Positions 8,440 to 64,000 of a DNA stretch of 64,000 nucleotides are shown here, piece after piece. The translations under genes and the position numbers were made by a program. Source of the stretch: Sphyrna mokarran (Eukaryota); NCBI GenBank assembly GCA_024679065.1, contig JAGIQG010000077.1, forward strand, positions 1-64,000, in the 5' to 3' direction. The notes under the pieces are model-generated. The model saw only the letters and a program-made list of their open reading frames with translations, was not told the DNA's origin and did no database searches. Each line of letters starts with the position of its first letter. Position 1 is the first letter of the stretch.

Positions 8440-9580
8440 CATAGAACATAGACCATAGAACACTACAGCACAAACAGGCCCTTCGCCCCACAACTTGTGC
8501 CGAACACATCAAAACCTACCCAGCCATAGACCTATCTATAACCCCCAATCCCATTGGATCCCATATACTCATCCAGAAGTCTTTTAAAATACCCCAGCGA
8601 GTTCGCCTCGACCACCACCGACGGCAGCCGATTCCATTCACTCACCACCCTCTGAGTGAAAAACTTTCCCCTAGCATCCCCTCTGTACTTGCTTCCCTGC
8701 ACCTTAAATCTGTGCCCTCTCGTCGCGACCATTTCAGCCCTGGGAAATAGTCTCTGAGAGTCCACACTATCTATTCCTCTCAACATCTTGTAAACCTCTT
8801 TCAGGTCGCCTCTCAATCTTCGTCTCTCCAGGGAGAACAGTCCCAGCTCCCTCAACCTGTCTTCATAAGGCATGCCTCCCAACCCAGGCAACATCCTTGT
8901 AAATCTCCTCTGCACCCTTTCAATAGCTTCCACGTCCTTTCTATAGTGAGGCGACCAGAACTGCGCACAGTACTCCAAGTGTGGTCTGACAAGGGTCCTA
9001 TAAAGCTGCAGCATTACCTCCTGACTCCTGAACTCAATCCCTCGATGAATGAAGGCCAGTACACCGTAAGCTTTCTTAACCACATCCTCCACCTGGGAGG
9101 CCGATTTGAGAGTCTTATGGACCCGGACCCCAAGATCCCTCTGCTCTTCCACACAGCTAAGACTCCTACCTTTGATAGTGTACACATTCATCCCGTTGGA
9201 TCTGCCAAAATGGACCATAACACATTTATCCGCGTTGAAGTCCATCTGCCAATTCTTCGCCCAGTCTTGCATCCTGTCGATGTCCTGCTGCAACTTCTGA
9301 CATCCCTCCAGACCATCCACAACACCACCGACCTTCGTGTCATCGGCGAACTTACTACCCATCCCTCCACTTCCTCATCCAGGTCATTTATGAAAATGAC
9401 AAACAGCAAGGGTCCTAGAACAGATCCTTGGGGTACTCCACTGGTGACTGACCTCCATGCAGAAAAAGAACCATCCACAACCACCCTCTGCCTTCTGCAG
9501 GCAAGCCAGTTCCGGATCCACAAGGCCAAAGCCCCTTGGATCCCATGGCCTCTCACCTTCTCAAGAAGTCTTGCATGTGG
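8440..9580 (-). mobile_element. CR1 LINE, 5'-truncated, near-identical to 891-1782, one frameshift near 9360
   Basis: [18 protein letters not shown], same 3' UTR. Confidence 0.95.
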
Positions 9581-12344: not shown

Positions 12345-14040
12345 AGTACAAAGAACAACAACAAAGAACAACACAGCACCGGAAACTTCGGCCCAACGAG
12401 CGCGCGCCGCCGTCCTAACGTCTTAATGACATATAGGGACCAATTTGTTACCCAATCAGCTTAAGAGAACATTTTTGGGATGTGGGACGAAACCGGAGCA
12501 CCCGGAGAAAACCCACGCAATCACGGGGAGAACGCGCAAATTCCCACAGACACAGGCCCAAATCCATGTCTCTGCACAGCAACAGCGATAGTCCCTGAGC
12601 TGTCATGGTGCCCATCAGATGGTCCAGTTTAAGCATACACTACCGACGTGAAGCACTAGGCCACTCCTGAAGCAACATCCAAGAGCAGCTCTCGCATGAC
12701 CTGCCGCATGCATGCCCTTGTTGGTCAACAAGGTGAATCGAACATCCTGTGGAAACAAATATGATATTTAAACAGTCCTACTATATCCCTCTATCTGCAG
12801 ACCGTTCATGTGGCTGTCCAAGAGACCCTTAAACAACCCTAGCGTGCCTGCTCCCACCACCTTACTCGGTAGTGCATTCCACACCCCCACTACTCTTTGT
12901 GTGAAAAACTGCCCTCTAATATTCGTCTTATACATAGCCCCCCTCACCCTAAGGCCGTGACCCCTCGTTCTATCCTTTTCTAATGGTGGAAAAAGCTTAC
13001 CACCATTTACTCTATCTATACCCCTCATAATCTTATATACCTCTAATAGATCCCCTCTCAGCCGACGTCTTTCAAGGGAAAACAACCCCAGTGCGTTCAA
13101 TCTTTCCTCGTAAGACAGCCTTTCCATACCAGGCAGCATGCTGGTAAATCTCCTCTGCACTCTCTCCAGGGCCTCCACATTTTTCCGGTAGTACGGCGAC
13201 CAGAACTGGATGCAGTACTCCAAGTGAGGCCTAACCAACGTTCTATACAATTGCAACATTAGACTTCTACTCTTGTATTCTATACCTCTTCCTATGAAGG
13301 CTAACATACCATACGCTTTCTTTATCACATTCTCCACTTGTACTGACACCTTCAGAGACTTGTGAACCTGCACCCCCAGGTCTCTCTGCATCTCTATACT
13401 CCGGATAGTTTTACCTTTTATCCTATAACTCCCCGCTACATTTTTCCGGCCAAAATGCATCACCTCGCATGTATCCGGATTAAATTCCACTTGCCATCTA
13501 TCTGCCCAATCTACCAGCCTATCTATTGTCCTGTTGGATTGGCTGGCACTGCTCCTCATTCCTGCCAATCCAAGCATCTTAGTGTCATCAGCAAATTTGC
13601 TGATCACAGCACCTACCCCCTCTTCCAAGTCATTTATATAAACCACAAATAGAAGAGATCCTAGTACTGAGCCCTGTGGCACGCCGCTAGTGACACACCT
13701 CCAGTTGGAAAAAGAGCCTTCCACTACTACCCGCTGTCTCCTCCTCCCAAGCCAGTTCTCAACCCATCAACATACCTGGCCCTGTATCCCATGCGCCTTC
13801 ACCTTTTCTATCAGCCTACCATGAGGAAACTTGTCAAACGCCTTACTGAAATCCATGTAGACGACATCAACGTCTTGTCCTTCACCAACTGTTTTTGTCA
13901 CCTCTTCAAAAAATTCCACTAGATTTGTAAGGCACGACCTCCCCTTAACGAAGCCATGCTGCGTATCCCTGATCAGATCGCAGCGCTCCAGATGTTCATA
14001 CATCCTGTCCCTGAGGATCCTCTCCATTAGCTTACCAGTC
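12345..14040 (-). mobile_element. CR1 LINE (third subfamily, long 3' UTR, TTCTTTG-type tail)
   Basis: ORFs 13767-14027 and 12768-13724 ([30 protein letters not shown]). Confidence 0.9.
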
Positions 14041-15249
14041 TCCTAAGCATGCCGCCAGTTGCTTTGTCATACAATCATTGAAGTCATGAACGGTACGTTC
14101 CACTAGCCTATGGTTGAAAAGTGATCAGGTGCTGCTAAAATATGTTGGTAACCTTTGGAGAGCATGCATTGTTAGAAATTAGCGCCAGTAAAGTCCTCGC
14201 CGTTTGTAGGAAAACAGTCATCCTGGTATTCCTTCTACACTGGTACCTTGGTATGCCATAATATCTAGATCAATGTCTGAAAAGTAGTGTAGCCCTCTCG
14301 GTGCATCTGCAATCCATTTAAGTAGAAGTGCACCACGATTAAACCCGAGGAACTCATTAATGCCCATAGGCACTCATGGCCCTTCCAAGGCACTCCCAGA
14401 TGTGTAGGAAAGCTAAGGGAGGGCGTATTTGATTTTCCTGGCACCGATCACATTGGTTCACCAACTGTGATAACAACATCTGGAAGATATCTCGGACGAA
14501 GCTCCAAACCAGCGCGTTTTTTCAAATAATCTCAGGGAGACCCTTATTTCGTTGACTTGGAGGCCGTGCGGAGGGCGGAAAAATAATCGGACAGCCGAGG
14601 AGTGACCCCGTCCTCCGCATGAAGTAAGCTTCCTTAATGAGGTATGTTTTCATGTTTCCAAGGATGGTCCTTCGGATCCGCCATGCAGGATCACTGACTA
14701 ATTTTAGGTCAGATAGAATCATTAGAGACGTTAATTTGCACTCTGGCCACTGGAAAGGTCCCCAAAATATTGAGAGCCTTCATTATCCCCTTTTAATGCT
14801 GGTAAGTGAGCCAGGCTTGTGGCAACCAGAGATGTTGCAATGCATCAACATTAACTATCTGGATTCCGGATCGCTGTTCCTGAAGATATTTGCAGGCTGA
14901 CAATAAAGTCGAGCTATATCGGGACAGAGACTTTGGGGAGAAAGGGAGGTGGGACTGGTGGTAGGTGGAGAAAGAATGTGGAATTGCCTTATCCACTTGT
15001 AGAGGCTTAATAGGTATTACAAAGAACAAAGAACAACACCACACGGAAAACACCCAACAAGCCCGCACCACCATTTTAACATTGCGAGTGCACACGTCTA
15101 CCTAAACCTTTGTCTACACCTATTGGGGAATATTTAGGGAAGACTAATTTAGGGACAATTTGATAACACCAATTGTGTTTATGTTTGGTAGCTAATTAAA
15201 TAAACAATCTGAAACTGTTGATGGAAGTTCTGGACACCAAATTCAGCCT

Positions 15250-23259: not shown

Positions 23260-26200
23260 GAGTCATGGCTGAGGGTCTGGAGCAGGGGGCAGGGCTTCAA
23301 GTTCATAGATCATTAGGACCTCTTTTGGGGCAGGTGTGACTTGTACAGTAAGGACGGGTGGCACTTGAACCCTAGAGGGACTAATATCTTGGCAGGTAGA
23401 CTAGCTAGGGCTACTGGGGGATCTTTAAACTAGAAAAGCTGGGGGGGAGGGGTGGGAATACCGATGGGACGGTGAATAAGGAGGTTCGTTCCCAGGTAGG
23501 GAAGGACTGTAGGCACTCTGAAAGGGGGGTTAGGCAAGTGGTGGAAAAGTGAAATATCCTGACTGAGGGGCTGAGGTGTGTCTATTTTAACGCCAGGAGT
23601 AAATAAGGTAGATGAGCTCAGGGCGTGGATTGCTGCTTGGGAATGTGATGTGGTGGCCATTACAGAGACTTGGTTGTCTCAGGGACAGGACTGGGTACTC
23701 CAGGTGCCAGGATTCAGGTGCTTCAGGAGGGACAGGGTTAGGGGCAAAAGAGGAGGTGGTGTGGCACTGTTGATCATGGACAATGTCATGGCTGTAGAGA
23801 AGGTGGAAGACGTGGAGGGATTGTCTACGGAGTCTCTGTGGGTGTAAGTTAGGAACAGCAAAGGCTCGATAACTTTGCTGGGTGTATTCTATAGGACGCC
23901 CAATAGCGACAGGGAACTTGAGGTGCAGATAGGGAAACAGATCCTAGACAGATGTAGAAATAATAGGGTTGTCGCGATGGGAGATTTCAATTTCCCAAAC
24001 ATCGACTGGAATATCCCAAGGGGTTTGGATGGTGTGGAGTTTGTAAGGTGTGTTCAGGAAGGTTTCCTGACACAGTACGTGGAAAAGCCTACGAGAGGAG
24101 AGTCTGTACTTGACCTGGTGCTAGCTAATGAGTCCGGGGAGGTGTCGGATCTCACGGTAGGTGAGCATCTTGGGAATGGAGATCATAATTCTGTCTCTTT
24201 CACGATAGCGATGGAAAGAGATAGGATCAGGCAGGCTAGGAAGGTGTATGTCTGGAGTAAGGGGAAATATGACAACATTATGCACTTTGGCAGGAACAAT
24301 AAATGTGTAGAGTATAGGGCTAATGGTAGGGCTCTTAATAGTGTTGAGGAACAGAAGGATCTTGGTGTATGTGTCAATAGATCCCTGAAAGTAGGCAGTC
24401 AAGTGGATAAAGTTGTTAAGAAGGCATATGGAGTCTTAGCTTTTATTGGTAGGGGGATTGAATTTAGGAGCCGCAGCATCATGTTGCAACTGTACAAAAC
24501 TCTAGTGCGGCCGCACTTGGAGTATTGTGTGCAGTTCTGGTCCCCACATTATAAGAAAGATGTGGAGGCATTGGAGAGGGTACAGAGGAGGTTTACCAGG
24601 ATGTTGCCTGGTATGGAGGGCAGGTCCTATGAAGAGAGGTTGAAGGATTTGAGGTTGTTTTCGTTAGAAAGGAGGCGGCTAAGAGGGGATCTTATTGAAG
24701 CATATAAGATGATTAGAGGTTTAGATAGGGTGGACAGTGATAGCCTTTTTCCTAGGATGGAGAAAGCTAGCACGAGGGGACACAGCTTTAAATTAAGGGG
24801 TATGAGTTATAGGACGGATATCAGAGGTAGGTTCTTTACTCAAAGAGTGATTAGGGAGTGGAATGCCCTGCCTGCAGCTGTTGTAGATGCGCCAAGTTTG
24901 GTGGCGTTTAAGAGGTTAATTGATAAGTATATGGAAGAGAAGGGAATGGTTTAGTTTGGAGGGGCATTGCTTTTTATTTTGGTCGGCACAACATCGAAGG
25001 CCGAAGGGCCTGTTCTGTGCTGTAATGTTCTATGTTCTATGTTCTATTAGGCAGGTAATTGGACGCATAAACTGGAAGGAGGTGTTCTTGGGGAAGATTA
25101 CAGAAGGAAAGTGGCGGTTTTTCAAGGAATGTTTGTCTGGGGCACTGCAAGACAACGTCCCGAGGAGTCAAGGAGGTTCTGGTAGGACGCGAGAACCGTG
25201 GTGCACGAAGGTAGTGGTGAACCGAGTTAGGAAGGAAAAAAAGGTATATAAAAGATTCAGAGAGCTAGGGGATGTTAGGGATCCAGAGGAGTATAAGGTG
25301 TGTAGAAGGGAACTTAAAAAGGAAATTGGGAGAGCCAGAAGGGGTCATGAGAAGGCCTTGGCAGGTAAAATTAAGGAGAATCCCAAGGCCTTCTACAAAT
25401 ATGTGAAAAGTAAAAGGATGAGAAGAGAAGGGATAGGGCCTACAAATGGTGAAGGGAGAAAAGTCTGTGTGAATCCGGAAGAAATGGCAGAAGTATAACG
25501 AATATTTTGCCTCGGTATTCACAGTGGAAAATGAACTGGGAGATTGCACTGCAGGTTTGAGGCAAATGGAAAAGATTGAGCATGTGGATATTAGGAAAGA
25601 GGATGTGTTAGACCTGTTAAATTGTACCAAGATAGACAAGTCGCCAAGACTGGATGGGATGTATCCCAGGTTATTGTGGGAGGTGAGGGAAGTGGTTGCA
25701 GAGCCCCAGGCGATGATCTTTGCGTCGTCCATGGAAACGGGAGAGATTCTGGAGGATTGGAGGATTGCGGATGTGGTTCCTATCTTTAAGAAAGGGAACA
25801 GGGATAGTCCAGGAAATTACCGACCGGTGAGTTTGACTTCAGTGGTTGGTAAGCTGATGGAAAGGCTTCTGACGGATAAGATATATGAACATTTGGAGAA
25901 GTTTGGACTGATAGGAAATAGTCAGCATGGTTTTGTCAAGGGCAGGTCATGCCTTACAAGCCTAGTTGAGTTCTTCGAAAGTGTGACTGAACACATTGAC
26001 GAAGGAAGGGCGGTGGACGTAGTGTACATGGACTTTAGTAAGGCGTTTGATAAGGTCCCACATGCAAGGTTTCTGGAGAAGGTGAGAGGGCATGGGATCC
26101 AAGGGGCTTTGGCCTTGTGGATCCAGAACTGGCTTGCCTGCAGAAGGGAGAGAGTGGTTGTGGATGGGTCTTGTTCTGCATGGAGGTCGGTAACCAGTGG

Positions 26201-27180
26201 AGTGTCCCAGGGATCTGTTCTGAGACCCCTGCTGTTTGTTATTTTCATAAATGACCTGGATGAGGAAGTAGAGGGATAGGTTAGCAAGTTCGCCGACGAT
26301 ACAAAGATCGGTGGTGTTGTGGATGGTCTGGAGGGATGGCAAAAGTTGCAGCGGGACATAGACAGGATGCAAGACTGGGCGGAGAAGTGGCAGATGGACT
26401 TCAACGCAGATAAACGTGTATTGGTCCATTTTGGCAGGAATAATGGGATGAATGAGTACAATATAAGGGGTAGGAGTCTTAGCTGTGTTGTAGAGCAGAA
26501 GGATCTCGGCGTCCGGGTCCAGAAGACCCTTAAGTTGGCCTCGCAGGTGGAGGAAGTGGTCAAGAAGGCGTATGGTGTACTGACCTTCATTAATCGAGGA
26601 ATAAAGTTCAGGAGTCAGGAGGTAATGATGCAGCTCTATAAGATTGTTGTCAGACCCCAGTTGGAGTATTGTGCGCAGTTCTGGTCGCCTCATTATAGGA
26701 AGGATGTAGAGGCTATTGAGAGAGTTCGGAGGAGATTTACAAGGATGCTACCTGGATTATGAAGATAGGTTGAGGGAGCTGGGACTCTTCTCACTGGAGC
26801 GACGCAGGTTGAGAGGCGACCTGATAGAGGTTTATAAAATGTTGAGAGGGATAGATAGGGTGGACTCTCAGAGACTATTTCCCCGAGCTGAAATGGTCAC
26901 TACGAGAGGACACAGATTTAAGGTGCAGGGAAGCAAATACAAAGGAGATGTCAGGGGTAGGTTTTTCACTCAGAGGGTGGTGAGTGAATGGAACCGACTG
27001 TCGTCGGAGGTTATTGAGGCAAACTCACTGGGGTCTTTAAAGAGACTTCTGGATGAGTATATGGAAACGAATAGGATAGGGGGTTATAGATAGGCCTGTA
27101 GATTGGTCGTTGTGATAAGCGCAACTCATGGGCCGAAGAGCCTGTTTGTGCTGTATTGTTCTATGTTCTTTTTTCTATGA
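23260..27180 (+). mobile_element. Near-full-length CR1 (ORF1 SGNH-esterase C-terminus, APE endonuclease, RT), mutated, host of a nested CR1
   Basis: ORF1 end DLYSKDGWHLNPRGTNILA; APE motifs DVVAITETW and MGDFNFPNIDW; RT motifs [20 protein letters not shown] and FADDTK; several stops and frameshifts. Confidence 0.95.
24281..25045 (+). mobile_element. Younger CR1 (EEKGMV subfamily) nested in the CR1 at 23260-27180
   Basis: The host frame KYDNI|RQVIGRINW is split; atta is duplicated at 24277-24280 and 25046-25049; the insert has its own TTCTATG tail. Confidence 0.92.
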
Positions 27181-30476: not shown

Positions 30477-30519
30477 CCTGGAAGAGATGGAACAATGCAC
30501 AGATACCAAGGAAACCCAT
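30477..30519 (-). CDS. Gene B exon 1: signal-peptide exon (MGFLGICALFHLFQ-)
   Basis: AGAATGG start context, hydrophobic, 43 nt ending in G|gtgaga (phase 1); joins to VTMS-QVTVSQ. Confidence 0.8.
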
Positions 30520-35629: not shown

Positions 35630-37465
35630 TAGAACATAGAACATAGAACATTACAGCACAGAACAGGCCCTTCGGCCTTCGATGTTGCGCCGACCAATAT
35701 AAAAAGCAATGACCCTCCAAACTAAACCATTCCCTTCTCTTCCATATACTTATCAACTAACCTCTTAAACGCCACCAAAATGGCGCATCTACAACCGCTG
35801 CAGGCAGGGCATTCCACTCCCGAACCACCCTTTGGGTAAAGAACCTGCCTCTGATATCCGTCCTATAACTATCACCCCTTAATTTAAAGCTGTGTCCCCT
35901 CGTGCTAGCTTTTTCCATCCTAGGAAAAAGGCTATCACTGTCCACCCTATCTAAACCTCTAATCATCTTATATGTTTCGATTAGGTCCCCTCTTAGCCTC
36001 CTCCTTTCTAACGAAAACAACCTCAAATCCCTCAGCCTCTCCTCATAAGACCTGCCCTCCATACCAGGCAACATCCTGGTAAACCTCCTCTGTACCCTCT
36101 CCAATGCCTCCACATCTTTCTTATAATGTGGGGACCAGAACTGCACACAATACTCCAAGTGCGGCCGCACTAGAGTTTTGTACAGTTGCAACATGACGTT
36201 GCGGCTCCGAAATTCAATCCCTCTACCAATAAAAGCCAAGACTCCATATGCCTTCCTAACAACCTTCTCGACCTGACTGCCTACTTTCAGGGATCTATGC
36301 ACATACACACCAAGATCCCTCTGTTCATCTAGACTACTAAGAATCCTACCATTTGCCCTATACTCTACACATTTATTATTTCTGCCATAGTGCATTACCT
36401 CACACTTTTCCACATTAAACTCCATTTGCCACCTCTCGGCCCAGCTCTGCAACTTGTCCAAGTCCCTCTGCAAACTATAACACCCCTCTTCACTATCTAC
36501 CACTCCACCGACTTTAGTGTCATCTGCAAATTTACTAATCCATCCTTCAATACCCTCATCCAGATCATTTATAAAATTTACAAACAGCAGGGGCCCCAAA
36601 ACAGACCCCTGAGGTACACCACTTGTCACCGAACTCCACGATGAATATCTCCCATCAACCACCACCCTCTGTCTTCTATCTGCTAGCCAATTCCTAACCC
36701 AATTAGCTAAATCACCCTCTATCCCATACATCTGCATTTTCTGCAGAAGTCTTCCATGGGCCACCTTATCAAACGCCTTACTAAAGTCCATATATACCAC
36801 ATCAACCGCCTTACCCCCATCCACCTCTTTGGTCACTTTTTCAAAAAACTCAATGAGGTTAGTAAGGCACGACCTACCCTTCACAAAACCATGCTGACTA
36901 TCCCCAATCAATTCATTTCTCTCTAAATAACTATAAATCCTATCCCTAATAATTCTCTCCAATACTTTGCCCACCACAGAAGTAAGACTCACTGGCCTAT
37001 AATTCCCTGGAAGGTCTCTCTTCCCCTTCTTGAACAATGGGACCACATTCGCTATCCTCCAGTCCTCCGGAACCACACCCGTAACCAACGAGGACCTGAA
37101 GATCAGAGCCAGAGGCTCTGCAATCTCCTCTCTTGCCTCCCAGAGAATCCTAGGGTAAATCCCGTCCGGCCCAGGGGACTTATCCAACTTCAAACCCTCG
37201 AGAATATCTAGCACATCCTCCCTATCTACTTCGATACCTTCCAGTTTGCTACCCTGTACCTCAGTGTTCTCCATAACTACATTTACATCACCCTGCGTGA
37301 ATACCGAAGAGAAATATTTATTCAGTACCTCTCCAATCTCCTCAGGCTCCACGCACAACTTCCCACTGCTGTCTATGACTGGCCCTAATCTTGCCCTAAC
37401 CAATCTTCTATTCTTAACATATCTAAAGAAAGCTTTAGGATTCTCCCGAATCCTATCAGCCAAAG
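35630..37465 (-). mobile_element. CR1 LINE, 5'-truncated, long open RT frame (tandem unit 1)
   Basis: 596-aa ORF with the full set of RT motifs; its N-terminal ~25 aa come from flanking DNA. Confidence 0.95.
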
Positions 37466-38799
37466 AGGTTTTCCTCTCACAGTCTGAAAATGTGCAGCCT
37501 TGGTGGATTGCTCCTGCTAAATTGCCTCTTCGTGTCCAAAGATGCAACGTTTAGCCTGATTAGCCACGTAAATTATCCCTTAGTGTTCAAACATATGCAG
37601 GGTAGGTGGATTGACCAGACCCAACTCCCTTTCATGCTTTTCAATGTACCGGATAGAAAGATCGATAATGCTAAATTCATAGGATAGGATCATAGAACAC
37701 CTAATATGTAGATTTCCCCTTTAGTGTCCCGAGGTGCGTAGGCCAAGTGGATGTTCCGCATCTTCTAGGGGCACTTTATCATTCTGGTATTCCAGCTAAT
37801 CTGTCCGTGTCGTCTGGAGGTCGAACTCTCACTGTTTGCATGTGCACTGGCAGGAATACTGAACATGATCAGAGACTGCCTGCAGTGCAGAAGGAAGCAC
37901 TGATTTACCCAGATCCACATCACCCACCTTATCTCTATAACAACACACAATGAACACTAAAAATTCACCTAGAAGATACATCGTTGGCACTAATGGGCAA
38001 TTTAACATCCACACATCTTTGGATACTAAGGAGCAATTTAGCATGGCCAATCCACCTAATTTGCACATCTTTAGCCATTAAGGGACAATTTAGCACGGTC
38101 AATCCACCTAATCTACACATATTTAGACACTAAGGGGCAATTTGGCATGGCCAATCCATCTAACCTGCACATTTTGGTCACTAATGTGCAATTTAGCATG
38201 GCCAATCCACCTAATTTTCACATCTTTAGACAGTAGGGGACAATTTAGATTGGCCAATCCACCTAATCTACGCATAGTTAGACACTAAGGGGCAATTTGG
38301 CATGGCCAAACCACCCTAACCTACACATCTTTGGACATCACCATTTTTGAAACAACAATGCACTTCATTCTTGCTAAGGAATACACATCCCGCGAATGAA
38401 TTGAAATTTAGATGAAATAGAAAACATATCACCAAACAATTAATGTACTGTAACACTCCCTGAAGACATGCTGCCTGTTCATCGCTATGACGCACAGTCG
38501 ATGACCACACTATGTCAAGTGAATGTGGAATTCACCAGCACACCGCACCAAACTTGTGTCATAGTTTCCATTGCACGGCCCGTCATAAATTCCACTGTAT
38601 CTGAAAGAGACCAAGCCCTCTGGGTTTGAGCTAAGGTCAACCTGCAGCCATTAACTCAACAGAAACAAACAGGTCCACAAAACATGTAGAAATAGCCCGT
38701 AAAGATATCCAAAGAATTGTTATATGCAAGATTCATTTTCTTGCTGTTGCAGGTTTATGTTGAGTAAGAGAGGTAAGAACTGTCTGCTAGAATAAGTAT

Positions 38800-40630
38800 T
38801 AGAACATAGAACATAGAACATTACAGCGCAGTACAGGCCCTTCGGCCTTCGATGCTGCGCCGACCATTATAGAAAAGCAATGACCCTCCAAACTAAACCA
38901 TTCCCTTCTCTTCCATAAACTTATCAACTAACCTCTTAAACGCCACCAAACTTGGCGCATCTACAACTGCCGCAGGCAGGGCATTCCACTCCCTGACCAC
39001 CCTCTGGGTAGAGAACCTACCTCTGATATCCGTCCTATAACTATCACCCCTTAATTTAAAGCTGTGTCCCCTCGTGCTAGCTTTCTCCATCCTAGGAAAA
39101 AAGGCTATCACTGTCCACCCTATCTAAACCTCTAATCATCTTATATGTTTCAATAAGGCCTCCTCTTAGCCGCCTTCTTTCTAACGAAAACAACCTCAAA
39201 TCTCTCAGCCTCTCTTCATAAGACCTGCCTTCCATACCAGGCAACATCCTGGTAAACCTCCTCTGTACCCTCTCCAATGCCTCCACATCTTTCTTATAAT
39301 GTGGGGACCAGAACTGCACACAATACTCCAAGTGCGGCCGCACTAGAGTTTTTGTACAGTTGCAACATGACGTTGCGGCTCCGAAATTCAATCCCTCTAC
39401 CAATAAAAGCCAAGACTCCATATGCCTTCCTAACAACCTTCTCGACCTGACTGCCTACTTTCAGGGATCTATGCACATACACACCAAGATACCTCTGTTC
39501 ATCTAGACTACTAAGAATCCTACCATTTGCCCTATACTCTACACATTTATTATTTCTGCCATAGTGCATTACCTCACACTTTTCCACACTAAACTCCATT
39601 TGCCACCTCTCGGCCCAGCTCTGCAACTTGTCCAAGTCCCTCTGCAAACTATAACACCCCTCTTCACTATCTACCACTCCACCGACTTTAGTGTCATCTG
39701 CAAATTTACTAATCCATCCTTCAATACCCTCATCCAGATCATTTATAAAATTTACAAACAGCAGGGGCCCCAAAACAGACCCCTGAGGTACACCACTTGT
39801 CACCGAACTCCACGATGAATATCTCCCATCAACCACCACCCTCTTCTTCTATCTGCTAGCCAATTCCTAACCCAATTAGCTAAATCACCCTCTATCCCAT
39901 ACATCTGCATTTTCTGCAGAAGTCTTCCATGGGCCACCTTATCAAACGCCTTACTAAAGTCCATATATACCACGTCAACCGCCTTACCCCCATCCACCTC
40001 CTTAGTCATTTTTTCAAAAAACTCAATGAGGTTAGTAAGGCACGACCTACCCTTCACAAAACCATGCTGACTATCTCCAATCAATTCATTATTCTCTAAA
40101 TAACTATAAATCCTATCCCTAATTATTCTCTCCAACGCTTTTCCCACCACAGAAGTAAGACTCACTGGCCTATAATTCCCTGGAAGGTCTCTCTTCCCCT
40201 TCTTGAACAACGGGACCACATTCGCTATCCTCCAGTCCTCCGGAACCACACCCGTAACCAACGACGACCTGAAGATCAGAGCCAGAGGATCTGCAATCTC
40301 CTCTCTTGCCTCCCAGAGAATCCTAGGGTAAATCCCGTCCGGCCCAGGGGACTTATCCAACTTCAAACCCTCGAGAATATCTAGCACATCCTCCCTATCT
40401 ACTTCGATACCTTCCAGTTTGCTACCCTGTACCTCAGTGTTCTCCATAACATCACCCTGCGTGAATACCGAAGAGAAATATTTATTCAGTACCTCTCCAA
40501 TCTCCTCAGGCTCCACGCACAACTTCCCACTGCTGTCTATGACTGGCCCTAATCTTGCCCTAACCAATCTTCTATTCTTAACATATCTAAAGAAAGCTTT
40601 AGGATTCTCCCGAATCCTATCAGCCAAAGA
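38800..40630 (-). mobile_element. CR1 LINE, chimeric (tandem unit 2)
   Basis: Same 5' truncation junction as unit 1; 3' end matches 45608; frameshifts. Confidence 0.95.
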
Positions 40631-41978
40631 GGTTTTCCTCTCACAGTCTGAAAATGTGCAGCCTTGGTGGATTGCTCCTGCTAAATTGCCTCTTCGTGTC
40701 CAAAGATGCAACGTTTAGCCTGATTAGCCACGTAAATTATCCCTTAGTGTTCAAACATATGCAGGGTAGGTGGATTGACCAGACCCAACTCCCTTTCATG
40801 CTTTTCAATGTACCGGATAGAAAGATCGATAATGCTAAATTCATAGGATAGGATCATAGAACACCTAATATGTAGATTTCCCCTTTAGTGTCCCGAGGTG
40901 CGTAGGCCAAGTGGATGTTCCGCATCTTCTAGGGGCACTTTATCATTCTGGTATTCCAGCTAATCTGTCCGTGTCGTCTGGAGGTCGAACTCTCACTGTT
41001 TGCATGTGCACTGGCAGGAATACTGAACATGATCAGAGACTGCCTGCAGTGCAGAAGGAAGCACTGATTTACCCAGATCCACATCACCCACCTTATCTCC
41101 ATAACAACACACAATGAACACTAAAAATTCACCTAGAAGATACATCGTTGGCACTAATGGGCAATTTAACATGGCAATCCACCTAATCCACACATCTTTG
41201 GATACTAAGGAGCAATTTTAGCATGGCCGAATCACCTAATTTTGCACATCTTTAGACCATTAAGGGACAATTTAGCACGGTCAAGCCACCTAATCTACCA
41301 TATTAGACACTAAGGGGCATATTTGGGCATGGCCAATCCATCTAACCTCACATTTTGTCACTAATGTGCAATTTAGCATGGCCAATCCCCCAATTTCACA
41401 TCTTTAGACAGTAGGGGACAAATTTGATTGGCCAATCCACCTAATTCTACGCATAGTTGTAGAACCTAAGGGGCAATTTTTGGCATGGCAAAACCCCCTA
41501 ACCTACACATCTTTGACATCACCATTTTTGAACACCATGCAACTTCATTCTTGCTAAGAATACACATCCCGCGAATGAATTGAAATTTAGATGGAATAGA
41601 AAACATATCACCAAACAATTAATTTACTGTAACCCTCCCTGAAGACATGCTGCCTATTCATCGCTATGACGCACAGTCGATGACCACACTATGTCAAGTG
41701 AATGTGGAATTCACCAGCACACCGCACCAAACTTGTGTCATAGTTTCCATTGCACGGCCCGTCATAAATTCCACTGTATCTGAAAGAGACCAAGCCCTCT
41801 GGGTTTGAGCTAAGGTCAACCTGCAGCCATTAACCCAACAGAAACAAACAGGTCCACAAAACATGTAGAAATAGCCCGTAAAGATATCCAAAGAATTGTT
41901 ATATGCAAGATTCATTTTCTTGCTGTTGCAGGTTTATGTTGAGTAAGAGAGGTAAGAACTGTCTGCTAGAATAAGTAT

Positions 41979-43807
41979 TAGAACATAGAACATAGAACAT
42001 TACAGCGCAGTACAGGCCCTTCGGCCTTCGATGCTGCGCCGACCATTATAGAAAAGCAATGACCCTCCAAACTAAACCATTCCCTTCTCTTCCATAAACT
42101 TATCAACTAACCTCTTAAACGCCACCAAACTTGGCGCATCTACAACTGCCGCAGGCAGGGCATTCCACTCCCTAACCACCCTCTGGGTAAAGACCCTACC
42201 TCTGATATCCGTCCTATAACTATCACCCCTTAATTTAAAGCTGTGTCCCCTTGTGCTAGCTTCCTCCATCCTAGGAAAAAGGCTATCACTGTCCACCCTA
42301 TCTAAACCTCTAATCATCTTATATGCTTCGATAAGGTCTCCTCGTAGCCGCCTCCTCTCTAACGAAAACAACCTCAAATCCCTCAGCCTCTCTTCATAAG
42401 ACCTGCCCTCCATACCAGGCAACATCCTGGTAAACCTCCTCTGTACCCTCTCCAATGCCTCCACATCTTTCTTATAATGTGGGGACCAGACCTGCACACA
42501 ATACTCCAAGTGCGGCCGCACTAGAGTTTTGTACAGTTGCAACATGACGTTGCGGCTCCGAAATTCAATCCCCCTACCAATAAAAGCTAAGACTCCATAT
42601 GCCTTCTTAACAACCTTCTCGACTGGACTGCCTACTTTCAGGGATCTATGCACATACACACCAAGATCCCTCTGTTCATCAAGACTACTAAGAATCCTAC
42701 CATTAGCCCTATACTCTACACATTTATTATTTCTGCCATAGTGCATTACCTCACACTTTTCCACACTAAACTCCATTTGCCACCTCTCGGCCCAGCTCTG
42801 CAACTTGTCTAAGTCCCTCTGCAAACTATAACACCCCTCTTCACTATCTACCACTCCACCGACTTTAGTGTCATCTGCAAATTTACTAATCCATCCTTCA
42901 ATACCCTCATCCAGATCATTTATAAAATTTACAAACAGCAGGGGCCCCGAAACAGACCCCTGAGGTACACCACTTGTCACCGAACTCCAAGATGAATATC
43001 TCCCATCAACCACCACCCTCTGTCTTCTATCTGCTAGCCAATTCCTAACCCAATTAGCTAAATCACCCTCTATCCCATACATCTGCATTTTCTGCAGAAG
43101 TCTTCCCTGGGCCACCTTATCAAACGCCTTACTAAAGTCCATATATACCACATCAACCGCCTTACCCTCATCCACCTCCTTAGTCACTTTTTCAAAAAAC
43201 TCAATGAGGTTAGTAAGGCACGACCTACCCTTCACAAAACCATGCTGACTATCTCCAATCAATTCATTATTCTCTAAATAACTATAAATCCTATCCCTAA
43301 TTATTCTCTCCAATACTTTGCCCACAACAGAAGTAAGACTCACTGGCCTATAATTCCCTGGAAGGTCTCTCTTCCCTTCTTGAACAACGGGACCACATTC
43401 GCTATCCTCCAGTCCTCCGGAACCACACCCGTAACCAACGACGACCTGAAGATCAGAGCCAGAGGCTCTGCAATCTCCTCTCTTGCCTCCCAGAGAATCC
43501 TAGGGTAAATCCTGTCCGGCCCAGGGTACTTATCCAACTTCAAACCCTCGAGAATATCTAGCACATCCTCCCTATCTACTTCGATACCTTCCAGTTTGCT
43601 ACCCTGTACCTCAGTGTTCTCCATAACATCACCCTGCGTGAATACCGAAGAGAAATATTTATTCAGTACCTCTCCAATCTCCTCAGGCTCCACGCACAAC
43701 TTCCCACTGCTGTCTATGACTGGCCCTAATCTTGCCCTAACCAATCTTCTATTCTTAACATATCTAAAGAAAGCTTTAGGATTCTCCCGAATCCTATCAG
43801 CCAAAGA
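41979..43807 (-). mobile_element. CR1 LINE, chimeric (tandem unit 3)
   Basis: Same junctions as unit 2; 423-aa ORF. Confidence 0.95.
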
Positions 43808-57403: not shown

Positions 57404-57736
57404 TACAGAAAGAAATTTACAAACAATTAACAATCGCATCAGTAACTGGAGTTACAGAATATGGCATTGAAGAGTAAGGAAAACCAAGGAATTATTTCGT
57501 GTGTTACTTCACACTTGCATGGCCTTAATATTGTAGAATATCTTTCACAATGCTGAAGAAACTCGTTACACATTTGACAAAATGAGCCAGTCTTTCTCAT
57601 CTGTGGCCATTATGCGAGGAACATTCAGTAGTTTGAAGCGGATGTACTTGCTCCCATGTTGATTTCCATTGGGCAGAACATACATTGGTAATTCCAGTCT
57701 CCTGTATAATACATCACAGACAAAACTCCCCGATTC

Positions 57737-57808
57737 TCATTTCCGGGTCTGCTTTTTTGACTTTTTTTCCAATGCAGCCAAATCCAGGGAGGCATAGAGA
57801 GGTCCACC
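57737..57808 (-). CDS. Gene A' terminal exon (GGPLYASLDLAALEKKSKKQTRK*) with a YxxL tyrosine motif
   Basis: ttcccagtctcag|GGT (phase 0), TGA at 57739-57737, followed by AATAAA signals. Confidence 0.8.
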   Translation of the reverse strand, partial: GGPLYASLDLAALEKKSKKQTRK

Positions 57809-57909
57809 CTGAGACTGGGAAATATATTCAACAGAAATGATTAAAATAAAGGACTGTTTCCAAAAATTCATTTCAATGTATTTTATTATAATGGGTTCAA
57901 TGCACTCAC

Positions 57910-57959
57910 CTGTATTCTATGTTGCGTTTTCAAGTTCGCCTCTGTTTGACCGTGATCCC
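57910..57959 (-). CDS. Gene A' cytoplasmic exon 3 (DHGQTEANLKTQHRIQ)
   Basis: cgcacag| ... CAG|gtgagt; 50 nt. Only the phase-1 entry frame is open, matching the previous exon; it exits in phase 0. Confidence 0.8.
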
Positions 57960-58169
57960 CTGTGCGTTAAGAGTTAAACTATGAATTGAAACGTCACACA
58001 AGCTATAGAATCTTTAAGGACATAGAAATATCAGTCGCCAATGACCATTGTATGTCAACAGTTTGAAGGCTACTTAATAGAGTCACAAGTAGGCTACATT
58101 AACTCTGCAAGGAAGATACTGTAAAAATTTCCTCCTTGCCACATCCTAGCAGTTGTTTTCCTGTTCTGA

Positions 58170-58362
58170 GGGAGAATTTAGCATCGCCAACTCACCTGAG
58201 TAGCACATCGTTTGGACTGTGGGAGGAGCACACGGAAGAAACACACGCAAACACAGGGAGAACACATAGACTCGCCATAGACAGATACCCAAGCCAGGAA
58301 TCGAACAAAGGTCCCTGATGTTGCGGGAGTGCAGTGCGAACCACTGTGCCACCGTGCCGCTG
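58170..58362 (-). mobile_element. tRNA-derived SINE 5' half
   Basis: ggcacggtggcacagtggttcgcactg head on the minus strand. Confidence 0.75.
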
Positions 58363-58489
58363 CTTTAGGTTGCTAGGCTACAATCATTAACACACAGCCC
58401 ACCTAAATTTTGTCAACACGACAGATATTCCACAATTCTTCAGAGGCAGTTAGATATGACATTGTTGGTGAAGTCGATAGGATTGCATT

Positions 58490-58895
58490 CACTGGGGTTT
58501 AGAAGTGTGAGAGGGAACTTCCAGGAACCTTATAAAATTCTGATAGGATTCGATAGGACAGATTGAAGATCAATGTTCCCGATGGTTAAGGAGTCCAGAA
58601 CGAGGGATAATAGTTTGAGGTTACTGGGGAATCCTTTTAGAACTAAGGTGAGGAGAAATGTTTTCACCCAGAGGGTGGTGAATACATGGATTCACTACCA
58701 CAGAATATAGTTGAGGCCAAAACATGATGTAATTTCAGGAAGAAATTAGATATACGTCTTGGGACTAAAGGAATCAAATGGTATGAGGGGATGGAGGATC
58801 AGGATGTTGAGTTTAATTATCTGCTGTGGTCAAAATGAACAGCAGAGCAGGTTCGAAGGTCCGAATGGCATACTCCTCCTTCTAGTTTCTATGTT
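58490..58895 (+). mobile_element. Old CR1 3' fragment in a gene A' intron
   Basis: ttcacccagagggtggtgaat and a ttctatg end. Confidence 0.75.
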
Positions 58896-59209
58896 AACAA
58901 ATGTAGACAAACAAGTGGCAATTAACAGTTAACTGTAGCATCCTCCGTAAAAGAGGCTGCAAACGAATCAGTCTTTTTGCTAATCCCGGAAACAGTCTTC
59001 TCAGGAAGAAAGCATAATTGTTTCCATCACATATGTTATTCTTGTGTTGTTTTGTGCCAATGAATACAAGGCCAAAAGCCTCGATAATATGATTTTGTTT
59101 GACAAAGTTTAAGTACTCCATTTATTGAAATTTTCTTTCAATCATGTCTCTACAGTTAACTGTCAGTACCAATCAACTGGTGCACTCATCATGAAGTCAT
59201 AGTTCGTGT

Positions 59210-59572
59210 AGGTAGTACATGATGTAGGTAGGACAAGGGAAGGGGATATTAAACAGAAATTTATGGAGTTGGGGTGGAAGCTTAGGACCAAAACAGACAG
59301 AGTGGTTATCTCTGGACTCTTTCCTGTGCCACGGGATAGTTTAGAGAAGAACAGAGAGAGGGAATGTTTGAACTCGTGGCTGCGGGGATGGTGCAGGAGG
59401 GAGAGGTTCAGGTTCCTGAACAATTGGGACTCAATCTGGGATAGAGGTTAGTAGATAAGTTTATGGACGAAATGGGAATGGTTTAGGTGAGTGGGTCATT
59501 GCTTTTTCCTAATTGGTCGGCGCAGCAGAACAGGCCGAAGGGCCTGTTCTCCGCTGTAATGTTCTATGTTCA
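59210..59572 (+). mobile_element. Internally deleted CR1: ORF1 SGNH-esterase fragment joined to the 3' end
   Basis: RVVISGLFPVPR...LNSWLRGWCRRERFRFLNNWDSIW, followed directly by agaggttagtagataagtttatgg...gttctatgtt. Confidence 0.75.
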
Positions 59573-59657
59573 TAGCAACACTTCACCAATCAATTTCCAC
59601 TTCATTCTTTTTTTAATTCTGACATTTAATCGCTGCCAACATTCCAATGAAACTTAC

Positions 59658-59704
59658 CCATTTGTCGCTCCTTATGTCCGTCTCGCTGCCTTCTCTGGCT
59701 CAAG
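59658..59704 (-). CDS. Gene A' cytoplasmic exon 2 (LSQRRQRDGHKERQMG)
   Basis: ccaattttag| ... G|gtaagt; 47 nt, phase 2 to phase 1, open frame. Confidence 0.8.
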
Positions 59705-59939
59705 CTAAAATTGGATATGGGAAAAGAACATCAAACAAACGTTATATCTGGCCTATCACATCTCAGATGCTGCACATTGTTGAAAGTAGAATTGTCTCGA
59801 GATCTTATATAAATCATCGAAAATAGAGGAACACATCGTGGAATCAGTTTTCGGATTGAAATAGGTCTGACAAAATATAAGATAGAGAAAGAGGGGACAA
59901 TGAACAATGTTAAACTTTGCACACTGTTCTCTTACTCAC

Positions 59940-59970
59940 GTGTCATTCCGGGATCCTATTTCTCTGTCTT
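59940..59970 (-). CDS. Gene A' cytoplasmic exon 1 (EDREIGSRNDT)
   Basis: tcttctattttag| ... AC|gtgagt; 31 nt, phase 1 to phase 2. Confidence 0.8.
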
Positions 59971-60075
59971 CTAAAATAGAAGAATATACGATTAGCTTAT
60001 TAAAAACTGCAAAGAGGAAATCATATTGAGGAAAACAAAGAAATTAAAGTGTCTCTAATAACCATTAATTTTCAC

Positions 60076-60177
60076 CTGATCTGCAGTGTTTACAAATCCA
60101 AATGGAAATAAGGACCGATAGCAGAATCAATATGACCAGGACACTGACTCGTACAGGAACCGTCTCTCCGCACCATT
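60076..60177 (-). CDS. Gene A' transmembrane exon (EWCGETVPVRVSVLVILILLSVLISIWICKHCRS)
   Basis: Acceptor tttttctctatag|, donor G|gtgaa, 102 nt, phase 1-1, with a 19-residue hydrophobic run. Not in the ORF track. Confidence 0.85.
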
Positions 60178-60547
60178 CTATAGAGAAAAAAGAACACTTA
60201 GAAACTGCCACCGGTCAAATCACTCTTCTCCGGGGTTCTCTAACCAAATTAAAAATGCAGAGTCACCAAAATAGGGGATGAATGTGGAAAATGAAACAAT
60301 GCTGGTGGGAAAGAGAGTGGAGAGTGAACACACAGAATGGAATTGATGAGACAATATTTGCTTGTGGAGATCGATTAAATGACAGCACTGTCAGAGTTGT
60401 CCTAAATTCACAGTGTATCAGATTGCTTTAGACCATAAGATCAGGAGACACAGGATCAGAACTAGGTTACTCGGCCCATGAGTCTGCACCACCATTCCAT
60501 CATGGCTGATATATTTCTCACCCCCATTCTCTTGCCTTTTCCCATAC

Positions 60548-61000
60548 CTTACCAGGATGTTGCCTGGTACGGAGGGCAGGTCTTATGAAGAGAGGCTGAG
60601 GGATTTGAGGTTGTTTTCGTTAGAAACGAGGTGGCTAAGTGGGGACCTTATCGAAACATATAAGATGATTAGAGGTTTAGATAGGGTGGACAGTGATAGT
60701 CTTTTTCCCAGGATGGAGAAAGCTAGCACGAGGGGACACAGCTTTAAATTAAGGGGTGATAGTTATAGGACGGATATCAGAGGTAGGTTCTTTACCCAAA
60801 GGGTGGTTCGGGAGTGGAATGCCCTGTCTGCGGCAGTTGTAGATGCGCCAAGTTTGGTGGCGTTTAAGAGGTTAGTTGATAAGTATATGGAAGAGAAGGA
60901 AATGGTTTAGTTTGGAGGGTATTGCTTTTTATATTGGTCGGCGCAACATCGAAGGCCGAAGGGCCTGTTCTGTGCTGTAATGTTCTATGTTCTATGTTCT
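60548..61000 (+). mobile_element. Young CR1 3' insertion specific to duplication copy 2
   Basis: Empty site cccataaccc at about 90-99; ata duplicated at the junctions. Confidence 0.92.
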
Positions 61001-61084
61001 ATAACCCTGATCCCCTTATTAATCAAGAAACTATCTATCTTTGTCTTAAAGATACTCAATGAGCTGGTTTCTTCAGCCTTCTGC

Positions 61085-61916
61085 AGAGGGACCTGGACAA
61101 GTTGCAGAGCTGGGCCGAGAGGTGGCAAATGGAGTTTAATGTGGAAAAGTGTGAGGTAATGCACTATGGCAGAAATAATAAATGTGTAGAGGATAGGGCT
61201 AATGGTAGGATTCTTAGTAGTCTTGATGAACAGAGGGATCTTGGCGTGTATGTGCATAGATCCCTGAAAGTAGGCAGTCAAGTCGAGAAGGTTGTTAAGA
61301 AGGCATATGGAGTCTTAGCTTTTATTGGTAGGGGGATTGAATTTAGGAGCCGCAGCATCATGTTGCAACTGTCCAAAACTCTAGTGCGGCCGCACTTGGA
61401 GTATTGTGTGCAGTTCTGGTCGCCACATTATAAGAAAGATGTGGAGGCATTGGAGCGGGTACAGAGGAGGTTTACCAGGATGTTGCCTGGTATGGAGGGC
61501 AGGTCTTCTGAGGAGAGGCTGAGGGATTTGAGGTTGTTTTCGTTAGAAAGGAGGAGGCTAAGAGGGGACCTGATTGAAACATACAAGATGATTAGAGGTT
61601 TAGATAGGGTGGACAGTGATAGCCTTTTTCCTAGGATGGAGAAAGCTAGCACGAGGGTACACAGCTTTAAATTAAGGGGTGATAGTTATAGGACGGATAT
61701 CAGAGGTAGGTTCTTTACCCAAAGAGTGGTTCGGGAGTGGAATGCCCTGCCTGCGGCAGTTGTAGATGCGCCAAGTTTGGTGGTGTTTAAGAGGTTAGTT
61801 GATAAGTATATGGAAGAGAAGGGAATGGTTTAGTTTGGAGGGGCATTGCTTTTTATATTGGTCGGCGCAACATCGAAGGCCGAAGGGCCTGTTCTGTGCT
61901 GTAATGTTCTATGTTG
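61085..61916 (+). mobile_element. Young CR1 3' insertion specific to duplication copy 2
   Basis: 243-aa ORF; empty site ttctgcggcaaag at about 171-183; tgc duplicated at the junctions. Confidence 0.92.
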
Positions 61917-63399
61917 TGCGGCAAAGAGCTCCACTGATTCACCACTCTCTGCGGATTCCTTCTCACCTCTGTTTTAGAGGATCCCAAAACATGAGACAAT
62001 AATAAATGAAATCAACTCGTAGAGTCATAGAATCATTGAGTTTACAGAATGGAAACAGGCCCTTCGGCCCATTTTTTCCACGCTATCCTTTTTATTAAAT
62101 CTCTAAGCTAGTCCCAGTTGCTCACATGTGGCCCATCTCCCTCTATATTCTTCGTACGCATTTAACTATCTAAATGTATTTTTCCAAGATAAAATTGTAC
62201 CTCACTCTAATACTATCTCTAGCAGCTTGTTCCAGACAATCACCACCCTCTGTTTGACAAAATTGTCCCCCGGATGCTTTTGTATCTCTGCCCTGTCATC
62301 TAAAACCTATGCCCTCAATTTTTTGACTCCCCTATCTTTGGGAAAATATATTGACTATCTACCGGACCAGTGTCCCCTCATTATTTAACAGACTTCTCTG
62401 AAGTGACCACTCAGCCCCCTACGCTCCAGTAAAAAAAAAGTCCCAGTCTACCCAGCCTTTCCTTATAACTCAATCCATCAAGTCCCAGTAACATCCTACT
62501 GAATCTTTTCTGCACTCTTTGTAGTTTAGTCTATGTACTCTAAGAAAGATATGTTTGACATTTATTGCGTGCAGGAAACAATAATTTTCACAGTATCACA
62601 AATGTATGTGACAACAATAAATCAAATCAAATCTATATAATCCTTGAACTGTATTCTTTATCTTTCAAACGCACGAGAAACAACACTTCCTGCATTATCC
62701 CAATACATGTGACAATAATAAATCAAACCAAGTCAAATCAAGTTAATGGGAACTGATATTTAACTGTCTTTCATGCCGTCATTGTTACTTTTTCCAATTT
62801 ATTTAAATTGATGCCCTCCTTGTTCTCGGCCCTTTCCGCCTTTGTGAATCGGTTCATCTTCGTTGCTCTGTCCAGCCAATTCAGGATTATCAACACATTT
62901 CTCACATCTCCTCTTAACCTTCAGCTATTACAGGGAACTAACTCTCGATTTTCCACTCCATCCAGTTGACTGAAGTGCCTCATTTTTATGACCATTTAGT
63001 GAATAGTTTTTTTTTCTCTGCACTCTCTTCATATTCATTATAAATTGCGTTGCCAGTAACTGTTCACAATTAAGACAGAATCAGAATCCTGCGAAATGTT
63101 GCTGTTCATTTGAGGTGTTATTGTTGTCATATCTGTTGATATGTAATGAAACATATTGTTTCTTGCGCTCTAAACATACTACGCATATATTTCACAACGT
63201 ACATTGATTTGATTTGATGTGGTTTGATTTATTCTTGTCACACCTATTGGGATACAGTGAAAAAACATTCTCTCTTGCACGCTACACAGACAAGACATAC
63301 CGTTCATAGATTACATAGGGGAGAAATAAATGTGAGGATGCAGAATATATTGTCCCCTTCACAGCTCGGGTGTAGTGAAAGATCAGTTTGATATAAAGT

Positions 63400-63630
63400 A
63401 AAAGCAAAATACTGTGGATCCTGGAACCTGAAAGAAATATAGAAAAAACTGGAAGATCTCAGCAGGTCTGACAGCGTCTGAGGGGACAGAATAGGGCCAA
63501 CGTTTCGAGTCTAGATAACTTTTCGTCGGAGCTTTGAAGAAGGATCGTCTAGACTCGGAATGTTGGCTCAATTCTCTACCCACAGATGCTGTCAGAACTT
63601 CTGAGATTTTCCAGCATTTTCTGGTTTGGT
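63400..63630. repeat. Imperfect palindrome (~90-bp arms, centre agct at 63530-63533) made of two Penelope-type repeat halves
   Basis: The reverse complement of the left arm aligns with the right arm along its length. Confidence 0.85.
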
Positions 63631-63889
63631 ATAACGACTTAAGGCAGCAAGGGAGAAGCTGCTCTTCCGTCTGTTTGTACGTGATTTCAAACTTTGGTAT
63701 CATTTCCCCGATGAAAGAAGGTAGAATACATAGTGTCCGGGCTGAGTGGAGTCCTTGATTATGTTGACAGCTTCTCTAAGCCAGTGAGGAGTGTAGATTT
63801 ACTTCACTCCTTTTCGATTCTGTGACTCGATTTCGACCATCTGGATCCTCTATGTTTTCCAAACAGCCTGACATCTCCAATAATTTGGA

Positions 63890-64000
63890 GGTGGCAGCAT
63901 AGTGGTACAGTGTTTCGCAGTGCTGTCTCACAGGGCCAGGGAACCTCGTTCGATTCCTGCCTTGGGTGCCTGTCTCTGTGGAGTTAACACATTTCCCCCT
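63890..64000 (+). mobile_element. SINE head truncated by the window edge
   Basis: agtggtacagtg...ctcacagggccaggg...gttcgattcc. Confidence 0.7.

Follow-up and report, generated by a model that had tools for sequence, protein, structure and literature searches.

PRARP and related non-rearranging VJ-C1 genes have reportedly been described by Fu et al. (2019) and Ohta et al. (2019). PRARP chains consist of a VJ domain encoded by a single exon and a C1 domain, followed by a transmembrane (TM) segment and one ITIM/ITSM-like motif; they possess a membrane-proximal Cys and exist as two gene types. SIRP, another system of joined domains, comprises V-C1-C1 paired receptors with several Tyr motifs. PRARP is also mentioned as a joined-VJ gene in excerpts of two papers (PMC10751288, PMC11599192), and an excerpt of a third assigns three C domains to shark UrIg and nine to UrIg2 (PMC12227049). 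With respect to signalling, one study names NxxR as the mark of the FcR-gamma-coupled TMs of LILRA2, NKp46, GPVI, OSCAR, FcalphaR and Xenopus XFL TM1 (PMC2413239).

The DNA analysed here, referred to as the window, is a stretch of 64,000 nt from Sphyrna mokarran (G000:C1404:1-64000; genome of 2.8 Gb). An initial annotation made from the letters alone had proposed that five exons near its end encode a TM segment with an Arg at the outer end and a cytoplasmic tail with a distal YASL. We propose, with a probability of about 0.65, that these exons complete an inhibitory-type, non-rearranging VJ-C1 chain of a disulfide-linked A/B dimer, and that the outer Arg is a recent and non-signalling addition.

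Structure of the gene

When re-derived, the five exons, their phases and their translation were identical to those of the initial annotation, and the Arg, the PLYASL motif and the CKHC lie where it had placed them (Table 1). In the last exon a second in-frame acceptor lies 6 nt upstream (57814), the use of which would add two residues. The five-exon product aligns colinearly with a RefSeq protein of Mustelus asterias (P0001), with 68 of 98 positions identical and a score of 327 versus 51 for the best of 300 shuffles, and five other shark proteins score between 165 and 235. Moreover, close paralogs repeat the same exons and splice sites in a direct comparison. Because the colinear match stands far above the shuffles and the exons recur in close paralogs, the module is not a chance chain and consists of real coding exons.

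Joining the module to VJ-C1 exons within the window was considered and rejected, since those exons, which share the strand, are located downstream and possess TM exons of their own. The ectodomain exons of the gene are found 2-3.4 kb past the end of the window on the same contig, C1404, where the locus (L011) encodes leader, VJ, C1, TM and tail in a 339-residue ORF. The tail is about 70 residues long and includes the Tyr motif. The C1-TM intron yielded no alternative TM exon and no RSS flanks the V exon, the single RSS-like match between 57 and 70 kb being situated in a tail intron. Judged by its sequence, the gene is thus a non-rearranging VJ-C1 receptor chain of type I. Its nearest named proteins are those of the houndshark Mustelus asterias, and Pfam V-set and C1-set domains are found in the window paralogs and in orthologs.

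Table 1. Coordinates of the gene and of related features (contig C1404, numbered as in the window, unless stated otherwise)
Feature	Position	Strand	Remarks
Leader	67433-67379	minus	beyond window end
VJ, single exon	66794-66462, 333 nt	minus	through G strand; beyond window end
C1	66371-66042	minus	beyond window end
C1-to-TM intron, 5.9 kb	60178-64000 (part in window)	minus	
Connecting peptide and TM exon	60177-60076, 102 nt	minus	phase 1-1; AG acceptor, GT donor
Features of the TM exon	Cys 60172-60170; Arg codon 60151-60149; CKHC 60094-60083	minus	membrane-proximal Cys, 19-residue hydrophobic core, juxtamembrane CKHC
Cytoplasmic exon 1	59970-59940, 31 nt	minus	phase 1-2; AG acceptor, GT donor
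Cytoplasmic exon 2	59704-59658, 47 nt	minus	phase 2-1; AG acceptor, GT donor
Cytoplasmic exon 3	57959-57910, 50 nt	minus	phase 1-0; AG acceptor, GT donor
Last coding exon, PLYASL and basic C-terminus	57808-57737, 72 nt	minus	phase 0-stop; AG acceptor
PLYASL, single ITIM-like Tyr motif	57802-57785	minus	last coding exon
3' UTR	57736-57335	minus	AATAAA at 57403-57398, 57349-57344 and 57340-57335
Tail-less type B TM exons	C1027 near 2405457, 2367823, 2172536 and 1930637		

Transcript evidence comes from one RNA-like run (X1; share 0.09), the listing itself recording no run as RNA. A 263-nt contig of this run equals 57433-57695 of the 3' UTR with zero differences, further contigs span the leader-V and V-C1 joints, and another is identical to C1, the match ending exactly at the predicted donor. 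The four junctions among the five exons are absent from the listed joints of the run, which are filled with repeats, and the two shortest exons are uncovered; this is evidence in neither direction. These contigs bear on the idea that the gene is a silent or redundant copy in a birth-and-death cluster, or a duplicate created by assembly. Several paralogs in the cluster are indeed broken, C1404 repeats the region 41 kb away at 99.5-100 % identity, and it mirrors the end of contig C1027, with six of eight exons identical. However, all eight exons of the gene are open with canonical splice sites, and the RNA-like contigs are free of mismatches to C1 and the 3' UTR, so that we regard this explanation as highly improbable. 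C1404 as a whole may be a haplotig or an assembly duplicate of the C1027 end. The 41-kb-spaced repeat (55001-72294 and 96189-113492 of C1404) carries a second copy of the five-exon gene.

Other features of the window include a type A gene at 30519-20843 (minus strand), with a leader near 30519, VJ and C1 at 28950-28198, a TM exon at 22952-22833 and a last exon with TLYARL near 20887, the exon between these last two not having been located. A second type B gene (4268-3447, minus strand) contributes VJ and C1, its TM exon lying off the window; in the copy of this gene on C1027 (L023), the Arg column holds Gly and the TM exon is followed by a GC donor. LINE-like reverse-transcriptase repeats, presumably CR1-like, occupy 719-1693, 8535-9374, 12771-14042, 23575-26759, 35760-43499 and 60482-61830, both between and within genes.

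A family of two gene types

A search with C1, in which 150 of 284 candidates were scored and four partial matches were left out, counted at least 37 type A and at least 33 type B genes in a cluster on C1027, plus one head-to-head A/B pair on C894. The two types alternate along the cluster (51 of 69 neighbours versus 34.9 expected, p 1e-4). The lone pair (C894:2360000-2388000) possibly represents the ancestral locus. The gene studied here belongs to type B, in which the J motif is degenerate; type A chains have FGxG and a TxYxxL motif, and their Cys precedes the TM by a similar distance. In type B V domains, a short C'-D region also holds an additional pair of Cys (L011:2462-2794), and a turtle group (P0059) has a similar pair. 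MHC class I matches are confined to another contig (53 of 53 on C1548), the receptor cluster itself occupying two small scaffolds, C1027 and C1404, and a single pair lying on C894.

The same build is found in relatives from rays, chimaera, bichir, sturgeon, paddlefish, gar, eel, coelacanth, lungfish, amphibians, turtles, squamates and alligators, which bear automatic database names such as 'kappa light chain-like'. No bird protein appears among the 120 listed of 145 matches. In a quick C1 tree of 81 rows, 17 Ig/TCR-type C domains, 13 of them from the Sphyrna genome, form one clade (SH-aLRT 99) that includes no VJ-C1 receptor. A germline-joined Ig light chain was rejected as an identity for the gene, since in this quick tree its C1 falls outside the Ig/TCR clade. 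The tree does not resolve the turtle groups as orthologs of types A and B. Two turtle groups share one contig, which hints that the two-type system reaches reptiles. The build of the shark family fits that of PRARP, and we take the two to be probably related.

Probable pairing of the two chains

A membrane-proximal Cys is present in all 34 type B TM exons. In the predicted model of an ortholog (mean pLDDT 66), a V domain devoid of a C'' strand is followed by C1 and by a TM helix that starts four residues after this Cys. The predicted fold is closest to those of Fab light chains, at about 20 % identity, and sequence and fold searches of the PDB yielded antibody- and TCR-type chains only, among the matches listed. 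Prediction of a complex between the A and B ectodomains of Mustelus lends weak support, scoring 0.56 versus 0.00 for the best control, with at least 74 % of contacts agreeing between runs and a partner pLDDT of at least 79; just 5 of 78 solved complexes, but all four mismatches that passed, score as low as 0.60 or less, and the likeness to Fab and TCR may explain the pass. Since the Cys is invariant, the genes alternate and the Mustelus chains are weakly predicted to associate, the chain probably pairs with a neighbouring type A chain as a disulfide-linked heterodimer.

The tyrosine motif

YxxL is kept in 23 of the 25 type B paralog last exons retrieved, a count in which 22 exons were found by a pattern that favours intact motifs and three by paralog comparison (two of the latter devoid of the Tyr), about nine genes have no retrieved last exon, and four of the 23 sit behind an early stop. 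Among TM-bearing orthologs, 9 of 13 have YASL. The Tyr is therefore conserved among paralogs and orthologs alike; together with the gene structure, this supports the earlier description of the product as a type I receptor with a conserved Tyr motif of its own. That PLYASL is ITIM-like without conforming to the consensus (I/V/L/S)xYxx(L/V) was also borne out, given that position Y-2 is Pro here and in most shark type B chains. The consensus form (V/I)LYASL is found in the Heptranchias and Mobula orthologs.

The Pro at Y-2, as well as the presence of a single motif followed by a basic C-terminus, would suit a Tyr that acts mainly as a YxxPhi sorting signal or as a docking site for partners other than phosphatases, the chain then steering the trafficking of the dimer and not inhibition. 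However, across jawed vertebrates the motif is mostly (I/V/L/S/T)xYxxL, and its absence is specific to the members that have a TM Arg, the pattern expected of paired receptors. We consider a role in sorting unlikely, and favour an inhibitory-type chain as the likely product of the gene.

The transmembrane arginine

The initial annotation had also suggested that the outer Arg might couple the receptor to an adaptor. At the matching column Arg is found in 3 of 34 type B paralog TM exons, namely the gene itself, a near-identical copy and one more, and in none of 13 orthologs, so the residue is conserved in neither group. All three genes belong to a single clade of four (SH-aLRT 99, quick tree), which is nested within genes that have Gly and whose fourth member has Gln; the codons at this column are GGA (Gly), CGA (Arg) and CAA (Gln). 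Read from these sequences, the outer Arg is a recent Gly-to-Arg change. The second Cys of the CKHC, which completes a CxxC, is limited to the same clade and is thus recent as well.

The surroundings of the Arg have been compared with those of receptors that use such a residue. Val occupies position R-3 in place of the Asn of an NxxR, and the best 19-residue hydrophobic window begins directly after the Arg, leaving 19 uncharged residues, enough to span the membrane. The distance from the Arg to a conserved Trp is 17 residues in the gene, versus 16 in the NxxR forms of other sharks and 15 in tail-less members of the Sphyrna family, which places the Arg one to two residues further out; the Trp anchor is misplaced in rows with a later Trp, and the Arg counts were verified by the Cys+7 column. 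(The 'STOP' on L028 results from reading on beyond the end of its shorter exon.) The outer Arg probably sits at the membrane surface and takes no part in signalling.

The competing view is that of a dual receptor similar to KIR2DL4, in which the outer Arg recruits FcR-gamma or CD3-zeta and the tail retains one ITIM-like motif, perhaps as an inhibitory receptor that is beginning to turn into an activating one. Precedents exist: KIR2DL4 combines a TM Arg with a single ITIM (PMC8850630), and rat Ly49 gained a charged TM residue before the loss of the ITIM (PMC2213150). Within the shark family, tail-less members would use a TM Arg, such an Arg has been gained a second time within the cluster, two TM exons of the zeta/FcR-gamma type are present in the Sphyrna genome, at C335:17364945 and C446:11045007, and in the ortholog model the position matching the Arg is the fourth residue of the TM helix. 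On the other side stand the lack of NxxR, the more distal position relative to the Trp, and the Gln that one member of the clade already has at this column. Under the check that the initial annotation had itself proposed, conservation among paralogs and orthologs, the Tyr passes and the Arg fails. Adaptor coupling via this residue is not supported, and we see little chance that the dual receptor is the correct view. The idea of signalling through a charged TM hence loses its support for the Arg of the gene itself and survives at the level of the family, in other members of which the TM Arg lies deeper and a Tyr tail is missing.

Candidate activating members

Such members were sought among 149 representatives, of which 58 were dropped for length, 28 for want of a TM, and 6 either for being Ig/TCR-like or manually. 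In the 57 kept, all with C1 and TM, the Tyr motif is absent from 8 of 8 chains whose Arg is followed by at most 18 uncharged residues versus 9 of the 49 others, the remaining 40 having it (Fisher p 1.5e-5), with a cut-off that was set after seeing the data (at 17, 5 of 5, p 0.0015; at 19, 8 of 9, p 1e-4), representatives that are phylogenetically non-independent, and the gene's own value of 19 right at the boundary. Models from catshark, bamboo shark, epaulette shark and horn shark (P0008, P0016, P0017, P0024) combine NxxR with short tails devoid of YASL, the catshark form having a YxxV in its short tail. The catshark NxxR TM, used as a query against the Sphyrna genome in a search that is itself weak, gave one weak match (E 4.7), to an ordinary paralog, and so did not reveal the catshark lineage there.

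In Sphyrna, a separate type B clade of four genes has the Arg two residues deeper, a Gln in mid-TM and a stop right after the TM, which precedes exons that are still retained (Table 1). One of them has an intact leader, V and C1, a second has a frameshifted C1, and two are devoid of an ectodomain in the assembled DNA examined. The gene near 2405457 (C1027:2405457-2410866) looks intact and appears to be the best activating candidate. At the place of cytoplasmic exon 2, three of the four have unrelated sequence, and the exon was not found in the fourth. Taken together, it is likely that the family includes true activating forms, in which the Arg lies deeper and the Tyr tail is missing. No description of paired forms of the VJ-C1 family was found in the literature searched, a body exclusive of Fu et al. 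2019, Ohta et al. 2019 and their supplements.

TM Arg residues also occur in type A genes of C1027, near 1326039, 1057949, 789463, 935735 and 1709220. In the first two the Arg is placed 17 residues ahead of the cytoplasmic side, and the gene near 1326039 has lost its Tyr motif; in the other three it is in mid-TM, with YxxL kept in two.

A model for the receptor

In the inhibitory-type A/B chain that we prefer, the membrane-proximal Cys would link the two chains into a dimer shaped like a TCR or a Fab. Each chain would bring one Tyr motif, PLYASL from the type B gene and TLYARL from type A, and a phosphatase with tandem SH2 domains, such as SHP-1 or SHP-2, could thereby find two phosphotyrosines on the dimer. 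Counting against the model, PLYASL departs from the ITIM consensus, and one Tyr per chain is weak unless the chains pair. Ligand would be bound by the CDR1- and CDR3-like loops, where paralogs differ most, and inhibition of leukocyte signalling would be balanced by the deeper-Arg, tail-less members, which would recruit FcR-gamma or CD3-zeta.

A more far-reaching proposal, which we find doubtful, sees the four-gene clade as an inhibitory receptor caught in the act of gaining an activating Arg, within an ancient, germline-encoded family of TCR-shaped heterodimers. About 37 A and about 33 B chains, each in 'on' and 'off' versions, might then combine to generate RAG-independent diversity in recognition and signal.

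The five exons by themselves form an ordinary tail already modelled in the databases of other sharks, and the interest sits with the family: probably two-chain and TCR-shaped, non-rearranging, kept from sharks to reptiles and numbering about 70 genes in Sphyrna, with likely on/off pairs of repeated origin. The role of VJ-C1 receptors before RAG can be modelled on it in a testable way. Neighbouring genes with no Arg, with an outer Arg and a tail, or with a deeper Arg and no tail constitute a natural series for the position at which FcR-gamma coupling occurs.

Comparison with known systems

TCR and Ig light chains, taken together with shark UrIg and UrIg2, share with the shark chain the VJ-C1 build, the predicted fold resembling a Fab light chain and the Cys of the connecting peptide. 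In contrast to them, the shark gene has neither rearrangement nor RSS, it encodes its own signalling tail, and its C1 lies outside the Ig/TCR clade. SIRP, compared here by description and absent from the tree, resembles the family in its joined VJ with C1 and in its paired forms, and SIRP-alpha clusters are the next-nearest named Atlas matches (0.95). However, the shark gene has a single C1, a single Tyr motif and a membrane-proximal Cys, and its family is made up of two types that alternate.

The receptors marked by NxxR find their counterparts in the catshark, bamboo, epaulette and horn shark relatives with NxxR and short tails, whereas the Sphyrna gene combines a long Tyr tail with an unconserved Arg outside any NxxR. 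With KIR2DL4 and the relatives of rat Ly49s3 it shares the co-occurrence of a TM Arg and one Tyr motif in the same chain. Their ectodomains are unrelated to it, and the shark Arg is a young residue that lacks conservation and precedes a full hydrophobic span.

With PRARP the shark family shares single-exon VJ and C1, an ITIM/ITSM-like motif after the TM, the Cys and the existence of two types, and its relatives extend to bony fish, amphibians and reptiles as well. The shark family differs in being a cluster of about 70 genes and not a pair, in its likely activating members with a TM Arg, and in having the MHC class I matches of the genome on another contig.
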